Virus record (IMG/VR): IMGVR_UViG_3300005096_000137
Span: 32,001-96,000 of that record
Length of the DNA stretch: 64,000 bases
Strand: one strand, 5' to 3'
From: a virus
Position 1 is the stretch's first letter. Every line of letters begins with the position of its first letter. Shown piece by piece: positions 7,211-62,747 of this stretch. Below the pieces are notes generated by a model. The model was not told where the DNA came from. It was given only the letters and a program-made list of their open reading frames with translations, and made no database searches. Made by a program: the position numbers and the translations under genes.

Positions 7211-7276
7211 TGGCGTATAGTCGGTGACCCCAGGACTCATGAGCCGGGGAGGTTGGTTCAACTCCAACTGCGCTAT
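7211..7276 (+). tRNA. tRNA (CAT) with truncated D arm
   Basis: acceptor tggcgta/tgcgcta, loop ctCATga, T arm gttggttcaactccaac, D arm about 9 nt. Confidence 0.5.
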
Positions 7277-21018: not shown

Positions 21019-21230
21019 GTGAGTGGGTTATGGACGTGACAGGCCTGACCGCCTGGGAGGTAAGATTCCTCGCCCACTTGCATGGAGGACCCTACGAGGT
21101 GGGGACGTACATGGGTAAAAGTCCATTATGGAAGAACTACCCGCGTGCGTCGAGGTTCGTAACCTTACTCCTCCGCTTTAGTTTATCAACTGAACCGGCA
21201 CCGGATGGTGTTCCTTCGTGACTCACCCAC
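21019..21230 (+). ncRNA. candidate structured ncRNA (about 210 nt, rod-like)
   Basis: 16-bp terminal helix with 1 mismatch; nested ggagga/tcctcc and gacgtacatgggta/tacccgcgtgcgtc helices. Confidence 0.5.
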
Positions 21231-21331
21231 GATAGGTTGGTAAGCGTTAATGGGCGGTCCCCGCGACAAGTCTATACGACAAACCGTCTGGGGTACGACT
21301 CCCCGCCCTTTGATACAAATGAGGTGGATGA

Positions 21332-24881: not shown

Positions 24882-24956
24882 GCCGTAGTGGTGTAAATGG
24901 CACAGCATACCAGGGCGTCCACCCTGGAGGCATGGGTTCGATTCCTGGGTGCGGCA
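24882..24956 (+). ncRNA. tRNA-like RNA with 8-nt anticodon loop
   Basis: gccgta/tgcggc acceptor, ccagg-gcgtccac-cctgg, ttcgatt T-loop. Confidence 0.55.
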
Positions 24957-24967
24957 CTTTGAGTTTT

Positions 24968-25072
24968 GCAGCGGTGGTGTAAAAGTGATCTAGGGAGGCC
25001 TCTCTAGGTACCATAGGTGAACATTACTGGGTTAGATACCCGGAGATGGGGGTTCGACTCCCCCACGCGGCG
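24968..25072 (+). ncRNA. tRNA-like RNA with hairpin inserted in D loop (copy 1)
   Basis: cloverleaf with ctaggga-ggcc-tctctag insert; T arm gggggttcgactccccc. Confidence 0.6.
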
Positions 25073-25083
25073 CTTCGAGTTTT

Positions 25084-25187: not shown

Positions 25188-25189
25188 CT

Positions 25190-25260
25190 GTAGCTATGGT
25201 GTATTTGGCCTGCACAAGCCCTGCGAATGTCTAGGAGATGGTTCAAATCCTCTAGTCACT
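25190..25260 (+). tRNA. degenerate tRNA (loop ctGCGaa, Arg-like)
   Basis: D and T loop remnants, poorly paired stems. Confidence 0.3.
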
Positions 25261-25271
25261 CCATATTCCTC

Positions 25272-26964: not shown

Positions 26965-27419
26965 TGCCTGCCTGTGATTCTAAAGACCGTCAACCAGTGC
27001 CCTTAAAAGAGGAACCACCACTGTCTGTTTTGGTGGTGTTGGGACTCAGCGTGGTGGGGCTTGGAGTCATCTTCCTACCAATAGTGATATTTGCTGTCCG
27101 GACCATGTTTAGATTGACTTGCCAAAATTGGTTCGATGTGTGGACATTGTTCTACTATTAACGAAATTCCCTGGATCCGGAGAACGAAGAGTGATTTGGA
27201 AATTGAAACAATTGCTGCCCCTCTCATACTGGACGACGTACAGAACAGGGTCTGGTGAGAAGCGGTTTGCAATTTGGCGAATGTGGTTTGGACGTTGCTT
27301 CGATGTGACGGACGTCCGTGTCTAATTCTGCAATAAACAGAAAGGACAAACCAATTCCACCATGGTGGGACGTTGCTGTGGGCAGCGGTACAAGTGTGAC
27401 ATTCACACTCCCCAGACAT

Positions 27420-27494
27420 CAGGTCGGTAAGCTTAAATTGGATAAAGCACTTGGTAGCTCCAAGGTTACGGAGGTTCGAGTCCTCCCCACCTGA
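27420..27494 (+). ncRNA. tRNA-like RNA with 5-nt anticodon loop
   Basis: D arm, cttgg-tagct-ccaag, perfect T arm ggaggttcgagtcctcc. Confidence 0.5.
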
Positions 27495-27499
27495 CTTAT

Positions 27500-27575
27500 T
27501 GTGCAGCAGCTTAAACCTGGTTCAAGCGACCACCTATCTGGTGGCTGAGTGGGGGTTCAAATCCACCCTGCACGT
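27500..27575 (+). ncRNA. tRNA-like RNA with atypical anticodon loop (ctATCtg)
   Basis: tgtgcag/ctgcacg acceptor, D and T loops. Confidence 0.5.
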
Positions 27576-27580
27576 CTCAT

Positions 27581-27655
27581 CGGACAGTGGCCAAGCCTGG
27601 TTAAGGCGTCTGCCTGATACGCAGAAGACCGGTGGTTCAAATCCATCCTGTCCGA
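27581..27655 (+). tRNA. tRNA-Ile (GAT)
   Basis: cggacag/ctgtccg, tctgc-ctGATac-gcaga. Confidence 0.85.
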
Positions 27656-27660
27656 CTTAG

Positions 27661-27734
27661 TGTGTAGTCGTTTAGATCTGGGAACAAGACACTCCGCATG
27701 TAGTAGAGAAGGGGTTCAAGCCCTCCCTACACAG
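27661..27734 (+). ncRNA. degenerate tRNA-like element
   Basis: tgtgtag/ctacaca acceptor, ggttcaag T-loop. Confidence 0.35.
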
Positions 27735-27758
27735 CCCTCAACTCTGAAAGGTAATGCA

Positions 27759-28133
27759 ATGCCAAAACTCAAGTTCAAATTCCATCCGCAGATTGTCAAA
27801 GACAAGAACGAGAAGAAAGACTTTATTGTCTACTTTGGCTCAAAGTTCTGAGGACCTTGTACTAAGATGGCTCCCCGTGTGGAAGCTATGGCAAAGACAC
27901 ATATTGTCTACAAGTTCTTGATGGAATCCAAGGATGAACCCACAAAGGCATTTATCAAAGCACTCCAGGTCCAGGGCGTACCCGTAATTCGGGTATTCAA
28001 AAACGGAACACCCATCGAGAGACGGTTCCCAGGTATTCAGGAGATAAAGGTGGTGCTGAAAGGTGTGAAAACCCGGAAGTCCCAAGAGAATTCAGACGGC
28101 TGGAATTGGCCGGACTGGTTGAAACTGTGGTAA
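27759..28133 (+). CDS. thioredoxin with in-frame TGA at the catalytic position (UGPC; candidate selenoprotein), 124 aa
   Basis: GAAAGG RBS, ATG 27759; IVYFGSKF-TGA(27849-51)-GPCTKMAP...GVPVIRVFKNG in one frame. Confidence 0.8.
27867..27889 (+). promoter_or_regulatory. SECIS-like hairpin
   Basis: atggct..cc-GTGT-gg.agctat, apical loop begins with G about 25 nt after the UGA. Confidence 0.5.
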
Positions 28134-28245
28134 GTAGTTAGGTTTCTAGGGTACCCGCCTCGGCCTTGAAGCCACAGTTCAAATTCATTCCATAACAGAG
28201 GAGACTAGGGTAAATGTTCTGTTTGAGGTTTGTTTACAATTACCA

Positions 28246-28299
28246 ATGAAACGAGGAACACCACAATGCGATTTACGTGAATGTAGAGGTCCCCCTTAG
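28246..28299 (+). CDS. putative leader peptide MKRGTPQCDLRECRGPP
   Basis: 17-codon ORF ending RGPP-stop 45 nt upstream of the next gene. Confidence 0.4.
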   Translation: MKRGTPQCDLRECRGPP

Positions 28300-28344
28300 G
28301 GTTGTTGTCCATACCCTTCCATTCCTTTTTGAAAGTACTGAACA

Positions 28345-28726: not shown

Positions 28727-28798
28727 GCGCGAGAGGCAACATGGTGTTGCGGCGGGCTTTCAATCCCGTTCTGGTGGGTTCGATCCCCATCTCGCGGT
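28727..28798 (+). tRNA. atypical tRNA, 8-nt loop CUUUCAAU (Glu UUC or opal-reading UCA)
   Basis: cgcgag/ctcgcg acceptor, 5-6 bp D stem, gcggg/cccgt anticodon stem, canonical T arm. Confidence 0.55.
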
Positions 28799-41542: not shown

Positions 41543-41667
41543 GGAGGGGTAGCTCAGTTGGTAGAGCGCCAGTAGCATAAAAACAGTTGTGACAAACTTG
41601 CTATTAAGCCGAACATAGCTGATTATCTCGGAACTGGATGTCGCGGGTTCGAGACCCGCCCCCTCCG
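41543..41667 (+). ncRNA. tRNA-Y RNA chimera 1 (Ro-binding-like helix replacing the anticodon loop)
   Basis: GGAGGGG/CCCCTCC acceptor, canonical D and T arms, ccagt/actgg stem enclosing a 59-nt insert with ACTTGCT-atta-AGCCGAA...ATTATCT. Confidence 0.8.
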
Positions 41668-41759: not shown

Positions 41760-41878
41760 ACGGGGGTAGCTCAGTTGTTAGAGCACCAGCTCGGGCCATT
41801 ACGACAAACTGTCCGGACAGTCTTGTATAACGGGTCACAGGGAGCTGGGGGTCGGTGGTTCAATTCCTCCTCCCCGTA
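41760..41878 (+). ncRNA. tRNA-like RNA with about 50-nt hairpin in place of anticodon loop
   Basis: acggggg/tccccgt acceptor, D arm, ccagctc/gagctgg stem, palindromic apex actgtccggacagt. Confidence 0.7.
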
Positions 41879-57193: not shown

Positions 57194-57457
57194 ATGATGG
57201 GTTCCTTGTTAGGGTGGTCCGGGAACATTGCAACAGTTATGGGAATTGGGATGGTCTCATACAAACTGCGAATCGGGTTTCTGTTCGGTATTCTCGGAGG
57301 TCTGTTTTGGGGCATACAAGGTACCTTGACACACCAGATGGACTTGGTTATACTAGAGATTGTGATAGCAATTATCCAAGCTTTTTCATGGTGGAAGTGG
57401 GGGAAGGCAGATGTGGGACCAGTGTGTCGAGTTTGTTCAAAACCAGTTACAGAATAA
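57194..57457 (+). CDS. small 3-TM membrane protein
   Basis: three hydrophobic segments, WWKW end. Confidence 0.5.
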   Translation: MMGSLLGWSGNIATVMGIGMVSYKLRIGFLFGILGGLFWGIQGTLTHQMDLVILEIVIAIIQAFSWWKWGKADVGPVCRVCSKPVTE

Positions 57458-58679
57458 CGACCTCTTCCAGGGTGGTCTTCTGCTCATGGTGGGTGGTGCC
57501 ATTTTGGCGTTGGTTCGCTCATGGCCTTTCAGGTTCTGGGGATTCATTAAATACCATTCCATGGTCGTCATTGATATCCCAGACAGGGACAGGTCCTTCA
57601 AGTGGGTTGACAGATGGCTGTCAAATCATAGTTATGCACTAAAGCATGCACGGGTGCTGACAGTGGACACTAAGGGATCACATCGTCCTCGACTATTGTC
57701 AAGGACACATATTATGTTCACGCCCGCACCAGGCACTCACTGGCTGTTTTACAAGTACCGATTGATCATACTTAGCCGCTCACGGAAGATTCAAGAGAAT
57801 GGCGACAGTGACGACGCCTATCGGGAAGCGTTTACCATCCGCGTCCTTGGACGTGACCGTGCTATCGTGCGGGAGTTGTTAGAAGAGGCTCGGGATACTT
57901 TCAAGCCTGAGAGTCAAAACAACATGGTCGTGTACACTCGTGGCCTAGGGTACTGGGATGATTATTATGTACCTACCAGGTCCATGGAGTCTGTGATACT
58001 TCCTGAAGGGCAGTCTGAAATGCTCATCCAGGATATGACAAGCTTCCTAAGTTCGGAGGTATGGTACCGGGAAAAAGGAGTCCCATACCATCGGGGGTAC
58101 CTATTCCATGGACCTCCTGGGTCAGGTAAGACTTCGTTTCTGTTAGCCCTGGCAACCCATCTGGAGAGGGACATAGCCCTCGTAAATCTCAAGTCTACGG
58201 ACCTAGCTGACGGCGGTCTGGCGACTGCCCTTACGGAGGTCCCACGTAATACCATTCTCCTAATCGAGGACGTGGATTGTGTGGTACCTACACGGGAAGG
58301 TCGATCCACAGAGGGGATAAGCTTTGCGGGGTTACTGAACGCCCTGGATGGTTTGACAACTCCTCACGGGCAAATTGTCTTTATGACGACCAACCATCGA
58401 GAGAAACTTGATCCCGCACTAATCCGGCCAGGGCGATGTGACACTGAGGTTCTTTTTACACATGCTACCAACTTTCAAAAGGAGATGATGTTTACTCGGT
58501 TCTTTCCTGATTCACCTTTGGCCTCGAAGTTTGCGCAAGTTGCTGATGGCAATATCAGCATGGCGGAGATTCAGAAATACATGATGCTTTATACCGATAG
58601 CCCCCAAGCTGCCCTTGAGAATACAAACCAACTACGGAGAGTGCAAGATGAGACGGAAGCGAAAACGCCAGAAGAATAA
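57411..58679 (+). CDS. BCS1-like membrane-anchored AAA ATPase
   Basis: N-terminal TM; FTPAPGTHW; SVIL; WY..KGVPYHRGYLFHGPPGSGKTS; LLIEDVD; GLLNALDG; MTTNH..LDPALIRPGR. Confidence 0.85.
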   Translation: MWDQCVEFVQNQLQNNDLFQGGLLLMVGGAILALVRSWPFRFWGFIKYHSMVVIDIPDRDRSFKWVDRWLSNHSYALKHARVLTVDTKGSHRPRLLSRTHIMFTPAPGTHWLFYKYRLIILSRSRKIQENGDSDDAYREAFTIRVLGRDRAIVRELLEEARDTFKPESQNNMVVYTRGLGYWDDYYVPTRSMESVILPEGQSEMLIQDMTSFLSSEVWYREKGVPYHRGYLFHGPPGSGKTSFLLALATHLERDIALVNLKSTDLADGGLATALTEVPRNTILLIEDVDCVVPTREGRSTEGISFAGLLNALDGLTTPHGQIVFMTTNHREKLDPALIRPGRCDTEVLFTHATNFQKEMMFTRFFPDSPLASKFAQVADGNISMAEIQKYMMLYTDSPQAALENTNQLRRVQDETEAKTPEE

Positions 58680-59454
58680 ACGTAAGACACGGGACTACAG
58701 TCAGGACGCCCCAGAATCCCTATCACACGAGGATGAAATGAGTCGGAGACGTCAGAAACGATTACGAGGTGAGAAGCCTAAATTCAGTGGATACAAACCT
58801 GCTAAAGTCGAACCCCGCTCGGAACACCAAGCTCAGTACGTCAATTCCATCAATGCCAATGATCTCGTGCTCTGCCATGGTCCGGCCGGCACAGGTAAGA
58901 CTCATCTGGCTGCTGGTATGGCTGTCAAGATGATGCGTGCAGGTGGCATTGAGAAGATAGTTCTGTGCCGCCCCGTCGTGGGTGTTGGTAAGGACATTGG
59001 CTTCCTGCCTGGTACAAAAGAAGACAAGGTAGGACCCTACCTCACCCCTTTGTTTGATGAAATGTCCTACTACTGTGAAAACAGCCTGGTCAAAGAGTGG
59101 ATGGACCAGGGCAAGCTGGAGATCGTCCCACTGTCCATGATGCGAGGGCGGACGTTCAATGACTGCTTTGTCATTTTGGATGAAGCACAAAACGCATCCA
59201 TGATGGAGCTACGTATGCTAATGACCCGTCTAGGTGTTGGGTCAACGATGGTCATTTCTGGCGATCTGACCCAGTCGGACCTCCCCGAGCATCAGCGTGG
59301 CGCTTTCAACACAGTTGTGGATCGTCTGAATCACGTCGAGTCTATTGGCGTCGTTCAACTTACAAACGAAGACATTGTTCGACACCAATTGATTGGTGTC
59401 ATTGAATCATTACTAAATACGTCGCCGGTTGGAGATTTTGTGGGATGCAGTTAG
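58648..59454 (+). CDS. phoH: PhoH family ATPase
   Basis: GPAGTGKT, GFLPG, MRGRTF, LDEAQN, GDLTQSD, DIVRH. Confidence 0.92.
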   Translation: MRRKRKRQKNKRKTRDYSQDAPESLSHEDEMSRRRQKRLRGEKPKFSGYKPAKVEPRSEHQAQYVNSINANDLVLCHGPAGTGKTHLAAGMAVKMMRAGGIEKIVLCRPVVGVGKDIGFLPGTKEDKVGPYLTPLFDEMSYYCENSLVKEWMDQGKLEIVPLSMMRGRTFNDCFVILDEAQNASMMELRMLMTRLGVGSTMVISGDLTQSDLPEHQRGAFNTVVDRLNHVESIGVVQLTNEDIVRHQLIGVIESLLNTSPVGDFVGCS

Positions 59455-62114
59455 AGACCATTCAGATGTCGGTGTTTGCGGACACCATCATGAAACAGAA
59501 ATACTCACATGAACTCACGGGCTCGATTGCCGAGAAGATGGAGGTACCTGACGGGACCAAAGAGGAATGGCCTAGTATTGCTTACCGTGTGACTAAGAAC
59601 GTGTTGAAACCCTTGGGGTACACAATGCGGGACAAGGTATCCCAGGATATTTGCAAGATGATCACTGAGAGGAAGTTCCTCCCCGCCGGGCGGTATCTGT
59701 ATGCCAGTGGACGTCCGTATAGTCAAGTTCAGAATTGCTACAGTGCGGAGACTGAGGTCATCACCAGTTTGGGGACCTTCACCATTCAGGAACTGTCCGA
59801 GACCAATGCAGGTAAGCATACCATCATGACCTCCCAGGGTAGGTGGGTGGAAGCTGATTTCAGGTGTTTTGGTGTACAAACTCTCATGGAGGTTGAATTA
59901 GGCTTCGGACGCGGGGGTAAGACACTGTATGCCACAGCAGAACATAGTTGGCGAGTAGCTGAGTCGTTTGGGATCGATCAGTCCCGAGGGGGTCGAAGAC
60001 GCTTTACACAGAAACATAAGGTTCTCACTCAAGACCTGACACCCGGGGATACACTCTGGCAGACCTTCGGGTATGGTATGAGTCGCACCCCTATCAACCC
60101 TGTGGGTATCCAACATGGTTTTGTCTGGGGTGACGGGAACATTAGTACTAAGGGGCATCAGTGTACTGTGCGACTGTGTGGGGACAAGCAAGAGTACATG
60201 GATGAGTACTTCGCATTGTTCCCTAACCATGTGATTGAGGATGACATTGAATTGTCACTCCTCCCAAGCCATTTCAAAAGCCTTGTGCCCCTCCAGTATG
60301 ATAGGTCCTACCTTCTCGGTTGGTTAGTCGGGTACTTCGCAGCAGATGGGTGTGTCGCCGACAACGGACGCATGACCCTCCTCAGTCATGATATATCCTC
60401 GGTGCAACACGTAAAGGACGTCTGTGCTATCCTGGGTATTGGGTGCAATCAAATACTGACTGGCACCAAGACATCCAATCTGGATGGTAAGGAATACACC
60501 CACTATTCGGTGTCATTTGACCGTTCCACTGTCACAAAAGACTTCTTCCTCAACCCTGAGCACCAAGACCGCTGGTTGGAAAACCCACCCCAGAAACAGA
60601 CCTTCTGGAAGGTAAAGTCGGTCAAGCGAACGGATAGGGTCGAACCTGTGTATTGCGCAATTGTGCCTGATACTCATGAGTTTGTCTTGGCAGACAATAT
60701 CCTAACGGGTAACTGCCTACTCTTGAGGTGCCATGACAGTCGAGAAGGTTGGTCAGAGCTACTCCACAATGCCAGCATGGCTCTGATGACCGGTGCTGGT
60801 ATCGGAGTGGACTATTCGGACCTCCGCAGTGAGGGTGCCACGATTCGGGGAACAGGCGGGAAAGCCACCGGACCTATTGCCTTGATGCAGATGCTCAATG
60901 AGTGTGGTCGTGGTATTATGCAGGGAGGCGCGCGTCGCAGTGCTATCTGGGCTGGTCTCCGCTGGGACCATCCGGACATTCACAAGTTTATTCGTATTAA
61001 GAATTGGTCGGATGACGTCAAAGCCATGAAGGCTAAGGACTTCAATTTCCCCGCTCCTCTGGATTGTACCAACATCAGTGTGCAACTCAACGACGAGTTC
61101 TTTGAAGCCTTCCACGACAACGAACATGTAAAGCACTCGCTCGCACAATCAGTGTACTGGGCAGTGATTGAACAAGCCCTGGAGACGGCTGAGCCTGGAT
61201 TCAGTGTGGACACTGGTAAGAACAGTGGTGAGACCCTGCGGAATGCTTGCACAGAAATCTCCTCCAAGGATGACTCCGACATCTGTAATTTAGGTTCAAT
61301 CAATTTAGCGAGAATCGACGATATCGAGGAATTCGAGAAGGTGGTTGATTTGGGTACCCTGTTCCTACTTGCAGGCACAGTTTACAGTGATGTACCCTAC
61401 GAGAAGGTCGATCGCGTGCGTACCAAGAACCGACGTTTAGGTCTTGGACTCATGGGCGTTCACGAGTGGCTTATCAAGCGAGGGAAGCCCTATGCTCCCG
61501 ATGAGGACCTTGAGAAGTGGCTGAAGAAGTATAAGAAGTCGGGGAAGATTGCGAACAAGTATGCGGATCAATTTGGACTCTCGCGTCCGAAGAAGACTCG
61601 GTCCATTGCTCCCACGGGTACCATCTCGATTATTGCTGAGACAACCGGTGGGCTGGAACCACTGTTTTGTATTGCGTATAAGCGACGATACCTAAAGCAC
61701 AACAATTGGTGCTACCAGTATGTCATTGACCCAACAGCAAAGCGACTCATTGATGCTGGTGCTGATCCCCATTCCATAGAGGACGCCTATACGTTGGCAG
61801 AAGACGTGGAAAGACGGGTCAAGTTCCAGCATTGGATTCAGCAGTTCGTCGACCATGGAATCAGCAGTACGGTCAACCTACCCGCATGGGGTACCAAATT
61901 GAACAACAAATCCAAGGTGCAGCCTTTTGGAACCATGCTAATGAAGTACCTCCCTGAGCTACGAGGGATCACCTGCTACCCAGATGGGTGCCGTTCTGGA
62001 CAACCCTTCACGCCATGTGACTATGAAGAAGCCTTGCGTCACGAGGGTGCTGAATTGGTTGAAGAAGCCGTCCAAGCCTGTAGTTTGGCAAAAGGCGGAG
62101 ATTGTGGAGATTAG
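59445..62114 (+). CDS. nrdJ: class II (B12-dependent) ribonucleotide reductase with intein
   Basis: FLPAGR, GAGIGVDYS, GGARRSA, NACTE, CNLGS, RRLGLG, IAPTGTIS, ISSTVNLP; no beta subunit in window. Confidence 0.85.
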   Translation: MQLETIQMSVFADTIMKQKYSHELTGSIAEKMEVPDGTKEEWPSIAYRVTKNVLKPLGYTMRDKVSQDICKMITERKFLPAGRYLYASGRPYSQVQNCYSAETEVITSLGTFTIQELSETNAGKHTIMTSQGRWVEADFRCFGVQTLMEVELGFGRGGKTLYATAEHSWRVAESFGIDQSRGGRRRFTQKHKVLTQDLTPGDTLWQTFGYGMSRTPINPVGIQHGFVWGDGNISTKGHQCTVRLCGDKQEYMDEYFALFPNHVIEDDIELSLLPSHFKSLVPLQYDRSYLLGWLVGYFAADGCVADNGRMTLLSHDISSVQHVKDVCAILGIGCNQILTGTKTSNLDGKEYTHYSVSFDRSTVTKDFFLNPEHQDRWLENPPQKQTFWKVKSVKRTDRVEPVYCAIVPDTHEFVLADNILTGNCLLLRCHDSREGWSELLHNASMALMTGAGIGVDYSDLRSEGATIRGTGGKATGPIALMQMLNECGRGIMQGGARRSAIWAGLRWDHPDIHKFIRIKNWSDDVKAMKAKDFNFPAPLDCTNISVQLNDEFFEAFHDNEHVKHSLAQSVYWAVIEQALETAEPGFSVDTGKNSGETLRNACTEISSKDDSDICNLGSINLARIDDIEEFEKVVDLGTLFLLAGTVYSDVPYEKVDRVRTKNRRLGLGLMGVHEWLIKRGKPYAPDEDLEKWLKKYKKSGKIANKYADQFGLSRPKKTRSIAPTGTISIIAETTGGLEPLFCIAYKRRYLKHNNWCYQYVIDPTAKRLIDAGADPHSIEDAYTLAEDVERRVKFQHWIQQFVDHGISSTVNLPAWGTKLNNKSKVQPFGTMLMKYLPELRGITCYPDGCRSGQPFTPCDYEEALRHEGAELVEEAVQACSLAKGGDCGD
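59736..60713 (+). mobile_element. intein with LAGLIDADG homing endonuclease (326 aa)
   Basis: N|CYSAETEV start, ATAEH block B, GFVWGDG and GYFAADG, VYC...HEFVLADNILTGN|C end. Confidence 0.9.
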
Positions 62115-62180
62115 GGGTTGACCTTACTCTTTGGACCAACTAGGATAGAGGAATAGAAACAAACTCTCTGGAGACATACA

Positions 62181-62747
62181 ATGCTGATTGCTGATTACGT
62201 TGCACAAGCCCGTTCGGTTGCCCACTACCATGACAAGGCTCCGAATGCCAATTTCATCTACCCCGCCCTGGGGCTCTGCGGTGAGATTGGGGAGGCTCTT
62301 GATAAGGTACAACACGTAGATGACGCGGAGGCCATCACTGGAGAATTAGGTGATGTCCTGTGGTACGTGGTAAACACCGCCTTGGATTTGGACATCACCA
62401 TCCCTTCCGTCATTGATAGTATCATTCTTGGTGGTACAGAGTGTCAGACCTTTGACCAACTTCAAGGTCGTTTCCTTGCCCTGGATGCCTCCTGCTTTCT
62501 AGCCTTCGTGGTGTATGCCGGACGTATTGCAGAAATTGCAAAGAAATCCATCCGTGATACCAACGGGTCTGTTTCTGACGAGAAAGTACAGATCATTCGC
62601 GAGAACTTAGGCTACATCCTCCTGGGCATCACACGCTTTGCCGATATGTATAGCGTACCCCTCCAGGCTGTAGCACAAGCTAACATTAACAAACTGTTTT
62701 CCCGCCGCGACCGAGGGGTTCTCTCGGGTGACGGCGACAATCGCTAA
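62181..62747 (+). CDS. MazG-like nucleotide pyrophosphohydrolase
   Basis: YPALGLCGEIGE, ELGDVLWY, NINKLFSRRDRGVLSGDGDNR; internal degenerate duplication. Confidence 0.85.
   Translation: MLIADYVAQARSVAHYHDKAPNANFIYPALGLCGEIGEALDKVQHVDDAEAITGELGDVLWYVVNTALDLDITIPSVIDSIILGGTECQTFDQLQGRFLALDASCFLAFVVYAGRIAEIAKKSIRDTNGSVSDEKVQIIRENLGYILLGITRFADMYSVPLQAVAQANINKLFSRRDRGVLSGDGDNR

Follow-up and report, generated by a model that had tools for sequence, protein, structure and literature searches.

A thioredoxin-fold gene with a conserved in-frame TGA at its nucleophilic cysteine position, a candidate selenoprotein gene of sediment phages

The DNA analyzed here, referred to as the window, is a stretch of 64,000 nucleotides covering bases 32001-96000 of the 148,427-bp IMG/VR virus record IMGVR_UViG_3300005096_000137, a phage genome labeled G000 with a completeness of 100% according to CheckV. 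In the labels used below, L stands for DNA loci, P for proteins, and G for phage genomes, with L017 belonging to G001 and L035 to G004. The window carries a thioredoxin-fold gene on the forward strand (27759-28133) comprising 124 codons, including one in-frame TGA. The gene begins with the ATG at 27759, which is preceded by GAAAGG, and ends with the TAA at 28131-28133. The original prediction held that two open reading frames (ORFs) listed separately, 27660-27851 and 27867-28133, lie in one frame, and they indeed proved to be the halves of this single frame. The TGA at 27849-27851 (codon 31, forward strand) occupies the first, nucleophilic redox position in an alignment with cysteine (Cys) homologues and is therefore a candidate selenocysteine (Sec, U) codon, while the TGT at 27858-27860 on the same strand encodes the resolving Cys of U-G-P-C, which is invariant in alignment A5. 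The readthrough product reads ...IVYFGSKF-U-GPCTKMAP.... The gene lies within a phage tRNA array, where its conserved upstream neighbor is a tRNA-Ile(GAU) (27581-27656, forward strand) that also precedes the thioredoxin gene in L003, L004, L006, L013, L014, and L016.

The readthrough product matched the Pfam family Thioredoxin PF00085 with an E-value of 2.4e-11 and 44 bits (cut-off 23.5), as well as the thioredoxin domain phrog_22 with an E-value of 4.8e-7. The AlphaFold2 model has a Trx fold (pLDDT 88.7, pTM 0.79), in which a predicted strand at residues 22-27 is followed by a helix at residues 32-47, with U31 and C34 at the start of the helix. Among the top 50 Foldseek matches in the PDB, nearly all were thioredoxins and the rest were thioredoxin-fold proteins, the top E-value being about 1e-6, and the cis-proline P75 was invariant across alignment A5, ordinary thioredoxins included. 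The NCBIfam TrxA equivalog TIGR01068 scored 33 bits against a cut-off of 96.8, and the other equivalogs scored lower. Since all NCBIfam equivalog and selenoprotein models remained below their cut-offs, the protein is, as judged from its sequence, a thioredoxin-fold redoxin but no TrxA orthologue. The family also has an aromatic C-terminal tail, W-Y-P-D-W-L-[KR]-L-W (window 28098-28130), which is conserved in all members, absent from ordinary thioredoxins, and modeled at low confidence; the tail may serve for docking.

Elsewhere in this genome TGA functions as a normal stop codon, as had been claimed before. Under the standard code, 218 greedy non-overlapping ORFs covered 90% of G000, and 102 of them end with TGA, the commonest true stop. 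Genome-wide reassignment of TGA (code 4 or 25) was rejected on the basis of this stop usage and this coding coverage. The code is thus not reassigned, and the in-frame TGA of the thioredoxin gene is an exception in G000. It is the only conserved in-frame TGA confirmed in the genome, where the list of same-frame ORF pairs split by TGA was too noisy to reveal further recoded genes. Stop usage differs along the genome: in the structural module (genome positions 75-30807, upstream of the window), the 26 stops comprise 23 TAA, 2 TAG, and 1 TGA, compared with TGA in 101 of the 192 remaining ORFs (Fisher p 8e-7). The GC content at third codon positions (GC3) is 0.46-0.50 in the structural genes, as against 0.57-0.60 elsewhere.

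An exhaustive phmmer search of 1.84 billion representatives yielded six short proteins of 78-93 aa with 38-49% identity, all of them beginning with the Met just behind the redox motif. A fragment profile search of 5.8 billion proteins, which would have taken proteins of up to 163 aa, yielded 22 family members, all of 57-93 aa and again starting at the Met after the motif, with no full-length Cys form among them. In the DNA, TGA was found at the same codon in all nine lineages that were read (the window, L002/3, L004/5, L006, L007, L008, L013, L014/15, and L016), whose proteins share 38-50% identity; the fragment starts imply it for the other family members too, and hence for all 22. The N-terminal part (MHPxIK...YFGT[RK]x) is open, conserved, and in frame up to the TGA in every lineage read. 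The window carries U-G-P-C and the relatives carry U-x4-C.

In alignments with P0008 (CWAC, 39% identical), P0089, P0112, and P0120, the TGA falls on the first Cys of CxxC, and it likewise matches the first Cys of ordinary thioredoxins (WCGPC). This agrees with the earlier statement that it sits exactly at the first Cys of the CGPC motif, and the homologue comparison proposed at the time returned Cys only in more distant homologues. A thioredoxin domain with CKYC at the TGA position was also found in the related phage G004, whose SNF2 helicase is 71% identical. The syntenic site in the complete, 104-kb genome of that phage contains no TGA thioredoxin, and the CKYC domain forms the end of a 234-aa ORF (L035 1468-2172, reverse strand) with a hydrophobic, signal-like N-terminus.

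Over the 12 codons before the TGA, the amino acid was the same in 249 of 432 pairwise codon comparisons, and 137 of these 249 involved different codons. For example, the Gly codon before the TGA occurs as GGC, GGG, GGT, and GGA across the lineages, and the second Cys codon alternates between TGT and TGC, with the TGA itself remaining invariant. Amino acids that are kept upstream of a stop while their codons vary indicate purifying selection on translation through that stop, and the retention of TGA by every known relative indicates that the UGA is read through on purpose. A sequencing error, a nonsense mutation, or a dead gene was rejected as the origin of the TGA, which is kept together with the flanking protein in nine divergent lineages. 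Quadruplet (+1) decoding by a UUCA anticodon was likewise rejected, given that a triplet keeps the frame and that the base after the TGA is G, A, or C. Deliberate recoding of the UGA at the nucleophilic Cys of the thioredoxin is strongly supported by these sequence comparisons.

We consider it extremely improbable that the UGA is not read through at all and that the locus instead yields a 30-aa peptide and a separately initiated 88-aa protein from the ATG at 27867, or is dead. Gene callers do annotate the 88-aa ORF alone, and do likewise in every member, and a GAGGA overlapping the TGA lies 13 nt before that ATG; however, this Shine-Dalgarno-like motif is not conserved in the relatives. In nine lineages with near-saturated synonymous change, protein-level conservation in one common frame extends over the part before the TGA, which is predicted to supply strand beta-1 and the active site of the confidently modeled Trx fold. 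Furthermore, a dead gene would not retain the TGA and both flanks at 38-50% identity.

A candidate bacterial selenocysteine insertion sequence (SECIS) hairpin follows the TGA at 27867-27889 on the forward strand, where the conserved Met codon marks its start. A single bulged A interrupts the 8-bp stem, which closes the loop CCGUGU; the stem starts 15 nt and the loop 23 nt after the TGA. The hairpin announced in the original prediction is thus present, but in the minimum free energy (MFE) structure its loop is CCGUGU, not strictly the GUGU proposed, and lies 23 nt from the TGA. A hairpin was found at the homologous place in every relative, over the codons M-[TSA]-[SG]-R-V-x-[ED], and starts there about 22-25 nt downstream of the UGA. 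The stems differ by lineage (CCAGC/GCUGG, UCCGGC/GCUGGA, GUCUGGCA/UGUCAGAC, UGACC/GGUCA, and UGGCC/GGUCA), and the loops of the relatives (CGUGU, GGUCG, GGG, and CGGGU) lie 27-31 nt from the UGA. The published bSECIS model prescribes a loop of 3-9 nt, a stem of at least 4 bp, a G in the first two loop positions, a UGA-to-loop spacing of 16-37 nt, and an MFE of -7.5 kcal/mol or lower (PMC13188914), and the relatives fit it in loop, stem, and spacing.

In eight of eight relatives, the hairpin was more stable than synonymous-codon shuffles encoding the same peptide (p 0.015-0.10 each), and the Fisher combination gave 8e-6 for the nine lineages, or 1e-4 for six distinct hairpins when near-identical ones were counted once. 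In the ungapped alignment A6, 74% of cells pair compared with 65% in shuffles (reached by 1 of 500), and five cells are changed on both sides (0 of 500 shuffles), while slid registers pair in only 15-48% of cells. The compensatory changes fall at third codon positions, as in C6-G18 to U6-A18. The Arg-Val codons that form the loop are invariant in the family yet missing in the Cys-form P0008, which fits a constraint at the RNA level. Across the relatives, the hairpin accordingly shows signs of being under selection, as far as sequence comparison can indicate. Closer to the UGA, 8-12 nt behind it, the relatives additionally possess a first small hairpin, built from the two additional U-x4-C codons (L002 351-365; L004 2183-2194; L006 619-632; L014 1232-1247). 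In L014 this hairpin, AUCGCA-UCAA-UGCGAU, is kept despite different amino acids, and the window has neither the extra codons nor the first small hairpin. An Rfam E-value scan of 27300-28300 revealed no SECIS-type family.

We estimate a probability of roughly 0.6 that the gene encodes a phage thioredoxin-fold selenoprotein, with SelB- and SECIS-dependent insertion of Sec by the machinery of the host. The UxxC thioredoxin (PF00085) is an established type of bacterial selenoprotein (PMC13188914). A ribosome meeting the UGA at codon 31 of the thioredoxin mRNA would come under the influence of the downstream hairpin, which would act as a bacterial SECIS and recruit host SelB loaded with Sec-tRNA(Sec). 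In this way, selenocysteine would become the attacking residue of U-G-P-C, or of U-x4-C in the relatives. The contribution of the phage would be the mRNA signal only, with selA, selB, selC, and selD provided by the host. During infection the protein would probably provide rapid reducing power, plausibly to the class II ribonucleotide reductase (RNR) of the phage. The insertion of selenium, the use of SelB, and the client enzyme are what we infer from this arrangement. Of the original selenoprotein claim, the recoded UGA in a thioredoxin stands and has gained a hairpin selected at the family level, but the hairpin of the window by itself does not reach significance.

G000 contains no EF-Tu/SelB-type GTPase, SelA, SelD-type AIRS_C domain, or CysRS, and no tRNA-Sec above the Rfam cut-off. 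Since the genome has no Sec genes, any selenocysteine must come from the host machinery. The class II (B12-type) RNR that had been predicted is encoded at 59445-62114 on the forward strand, as recognized by PF02867 (E-value 1e-53) and the B12-RNR insertion domain PF21995, and no RNR small subunit was found in G000, in keeping with the predicted class. It belongs to a nucleotide-metabolism block (window 57411-62747) in which it is flanked by a BCS1-like AAA ATPase, PhoH, and MazG. The thioredoxin gene is located 31 kb from the RNR, which its product plausibly reduces. Phage T4 encodes NrdC, a Cys-based thioredoxin that acts as RNR reductant; shared with it is a small phage redoxin accompanying a phage RNR, whereas here the active site has a UGA, the gene is 31 kb away, and the link to the RNR is our inference.

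Several observations weigh against a SECIS-directed selenoprotein. Taken alone, the hairpin of the window had a z-score of -0.94 against dinucleotide shuffles and a p value of 0.36 against synonymous-codon shuffles. Set against the bSECIS model, its spacing is 23 nt and its energy -7.2 kcal/mol, with a G only at the third position of the MFE loop. Energies in 27-nt windows ranged from -6.4 to -10.2 kcal/mol across the lineages, and six of the nine, including that of the window, were weaker than -7.5. The hairpin ranked in the top 1-12% of 27-nt windows of each gene but was seldom the strongest, and in L004 and L007 it sits 3 nt upstream of the others. None of the NCBIfam selenoprotein models scored above its cut-off for the gene product, and a family devoid of any Cys form is unusual for selenoproteins. 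The supply of selA, selB, selC, and selD by the host is presumed. Finally, a conserved tRNA carrying UCA lies close to the gene in three lineages.

This noncanonical tRNA, a possible UGA reader, was detected with ARAGORN at a lowered threshold at 28727-28798 on the forward strand, about 600 nt downstream of the thioredoxin gene. Homologues are located at L013 9463-9535, L002 1046-1118, and L017 11169-11242 (reverse strand), the first two lying 720 nt and 430 nt downstream of the thioredoxin gene, respectively. All four copies have the same 8-nt anticodon loop, CUUUCAAU, which contains UCA. The tRNA has a D stem of 5-6 bp, a small D loop, a short variable region of 4-5 nt, U73, and an acceptor stem of 7 bp, of which 6 are paired in the window copy, where an extra CG in the 5' strand results in a G1.G72 mismatch. 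The covariance model R1, built from the four copies, gave 90-101 bits on these and at most 42 bits on about 90 other tRNAs. In the cloverleaf, 98.9% of cells are paired with 7 compensatory pairs, a level that none of 500 shuffles reached, and one compensatory pair supports the 8-nt loop register. The tRNA was present in three of the six lineages with at least 1 kb of downstream DNA, and also in G001, where a TGA thioredoxin was not found.

The loop does not have the expected 7-nt form with U33, UCA, and a purine at position 37. Reasoning from 3' stacking, one would expect the anticodon UCA with an extra U on its 5' side, which is also how the alignment to the Rfam tRNA-Sec model places it, but UUC is possible as well. 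The tRNA-Sec model RF01852 was the best Rfam match of this tRNA at 33.5 bits, below the gathering threshold of 47. Since a phage tRNA-Ser also scores 33.5 bits, the match is no evidence for a tRNA-Sec. A canonical tRNA-Sec identity was rejected in view of the score below gathering and the lack of a long variable arm and of an 8/5 branch. The search pattern GGCTTTCAATCC...GGGTTCGATCCCC also matched an ordinary tRNA-Glu(UUC) with a 7-nt loop in L018 and L019.

The tRNA raises the alternative that it reads the UGA itself and inserts an ordinary amino acid, in which case the thioredoxin would be a conventional dithiol enzyme that depends on expression of the phage tRNA for its synthesis; on balance we regard this as unlikely. 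U73, C35, and A36 are identity elements of CysRS, so Cys would be the best guess for the inserted residue. The family defined by the loop GG-CUUUCAAU-CC recurs in the window, L013, and L002, each time 430-720 nt downstream of the thioredoxin gene. Its cloverleaf is supported by covariation, and its members share 88-92% identity even across phages with thioredoxins of only about 45% identity. However, every lineage has its thioredoxin gene embedded in a tRNA array, where some tRNA would be close by chance anyway. Moreover, L014/L015 keeps the TGA with no such tRNA in the syntenic array or in the 10 kb downstream, and L004 and L008 have none within 3 kb. Conversely, the unrelated 92-kb phage G001 (L017) has the tRNA but no TGA thioredoxin that could be found in its record, which is 68% complete.

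The same division appears in the decoding properties of the tRNA. ARAGORN assigned the anticodon tca to the L013 copy, the Rfam tRNA-Sec model places UCA as the anticodon, and a precedent is on record in a U73-bearing tRNA-Cys(UCA) that reads UGA as Cys (PMC5389517). On the other hand, with an 8-nt loop the anticodon may equally be UUC (Glu), the tRNAs nearest by model score are phage tRNA-Glu(UUC), and G000 contains several further tRNA-like genes with odd anticodon arms. The G1.G72 mismatch of the window copy also speaks against this reading, and four independent sediment contigs have no indel there. The rarity of TGA in the structural genes (1/26) would be expected if UGA were leaky late in infection, but it has ordinary alternatives in the TAA preference of highly expressed genes and the lower GC3. 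As TGA ends about half of the phage genes, an efficient suppressor would be costly. In addition, if the residue were Cys, chemistry would not explain why TGA rather than TGY persists in all 22 members.

It is also conceivable, but very improbable in our assessment, that both elements act together, with the phage tRNA serving as a private UGA decoder for one codon and the hairpin helping it, either because host SelB delivers the tRNA or because the hairpin merely slows termination. A selected hairpin and a UCA tRNA do occur together in the one complete genome. A possible eighth acceptor pair (A-1 with U73) in L013 and L002 would combine with the 5-bp T stem into the 13-bp branch that SelB prefers, and SelB-like delivery of Cys-tRNA(UCA) has been proposed for Deltaproteobacteria (PMC5389517, PMC7609411). 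Nevertheless, the extra CG in the 5' strand makes the eighth pair impossible in the window copy, and the lack of a long variable arm makes charging by SerRS, and hence Sec synthesis on the phage tRNA, unlikely. The tRNA was not found in the available DNA of three lineages. A broader version, in which a clade of sediment phages possesses a private one-codon recoding system consisting of the UGA thioredoxin, the noncanonical phage tRNA, and the hairpin, appears to us quite unlikely. If it were true, the phage, and not the host alone, would set when the UGA is read and with which residue, Cys or Sec.

Phages with a suppressor tRNA(UCA) reportedly reassign TGA throughout the genome in their late genes, in most cases to Trp (Borges et al. 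2022). A phage tRNA able to read UGA would be common to them and to the present case, but here TGA is the main stop. Compared with bacterial UxxC thioredoxin-fold selenoproteins, of which the Treponema denticola Trx is an example cited as ref. 84 in PMC13188914, the phage gene agrees in the fold, the UGA at the attacking Cys, the existence of Cys homologues, and a small hairpin with a G near the start of the loop within 16-37 nt. It differs from them in residing on a tailed phage without Sec genes of its own, in belonging to a family that falls below all NCBIfam thioredoxin and selenoprotein cut-offs, and in the U-x4-C of the relatives, the aromatic tail (WYPDWL[KR]LW), and the lack of a Cys form within the phage family.

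The phage tRNA resembles the selC*-type tRNA-Cys(UCA) of Desulfobacterales and Syntrophobacterales described by Mukai et al. (PMC5389517) in U73, UCA, and an unusual body, and each of the two is linked to UGA codons at redox Cys/Sec positions. The selC* tRNAs, however, have an 8/4 acceptor/T branch, a 7-nt loop, and dedicated selB* and cysS* genes, whereas the phage tRNA has a 7/5 (possibly 8/5) branch, an 8-nt loop, and a short variable region, with no selB* or cysS* in G000. A natural 8-nt anticodon loop is also found in the yeast mitochondrial tRNA-Thr(UAG), in which it alters the codon read (PMC7609411), but that tRNA is organellar, unrelated in sequence, and directed at another codon.

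Strains of about 90-96% identity were found in metagenomes of marine-sediment and sediment origin. Four sediment runs yielded contigs at this identity that cover the stretch just downstream of the TGA and end at 27894, short of it. Searches against cultured phages with tblastn and megablast found no cultured relatives, and a pattern search of GTDB representatives found no prophage copies. DNA patterns for the thioredoxin gene and for the tRNA returned nothing useful from IMG/VR and GTDB genomes, and single-protein and profile scans of IMG/VR and a metagenome collection returned only distant ordinary thioredoxins.

In addition to the features above, weak or degenerate tRNA-like genes with odd anticodon arms lie near the thioredoxin gene at 27421-27493, about 27500-27580, and about 27661-27735, and further weak or degenerate ones were found at 24882-24957, 24997-25076, 25189-25262, and 7211-7276. 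The first of them matched the Rfam tRNA model with 27.7 bits, and ARAGORN saw the set at a lowered threshold only. Rfam tRNA matches of 52.6 and 47.4 bits at 41543-41667 and 41760-41878, each of about 120 nt, represent tRNA bodies with large inserts, and a DUF3800-IX RNA was detected at 21181-21249 (45.6 bits, gathering 36.8). A SNF2-type helicase is conserved 2-4 kb downstream of the thioredoxin gene, and in some lineages, though not in the window, it carries an intein with Intein_splicing and LAGLIDADG domains (L004 5176-5459 onward; L033 10001-13018).

Known selenoproteins come from cells and a few eukaryotic viruses. Our literature searches found no published example of a bacteriophage selenoprotein, and a 2026 inventory of prokaryotic selenoproteins (PMC13188914) makes no mention of phages or viruses. 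The gene is small and its signal compact, consisting of the UGA and a hairpin of about 25 nt, and the tRNA with the 8-nt loop next to it poses a second question, namely whether a phage can carry a reader for a single stop codon. If the selenoprotein assignment is true, gene callers would systematically truncate such a family in phage genomes, as has happened with all 22 public members. Phages would then also be drawing on the selenocysteine machinery and selenium supply of their hosts, and such genes would mark Sec-competent hosts.

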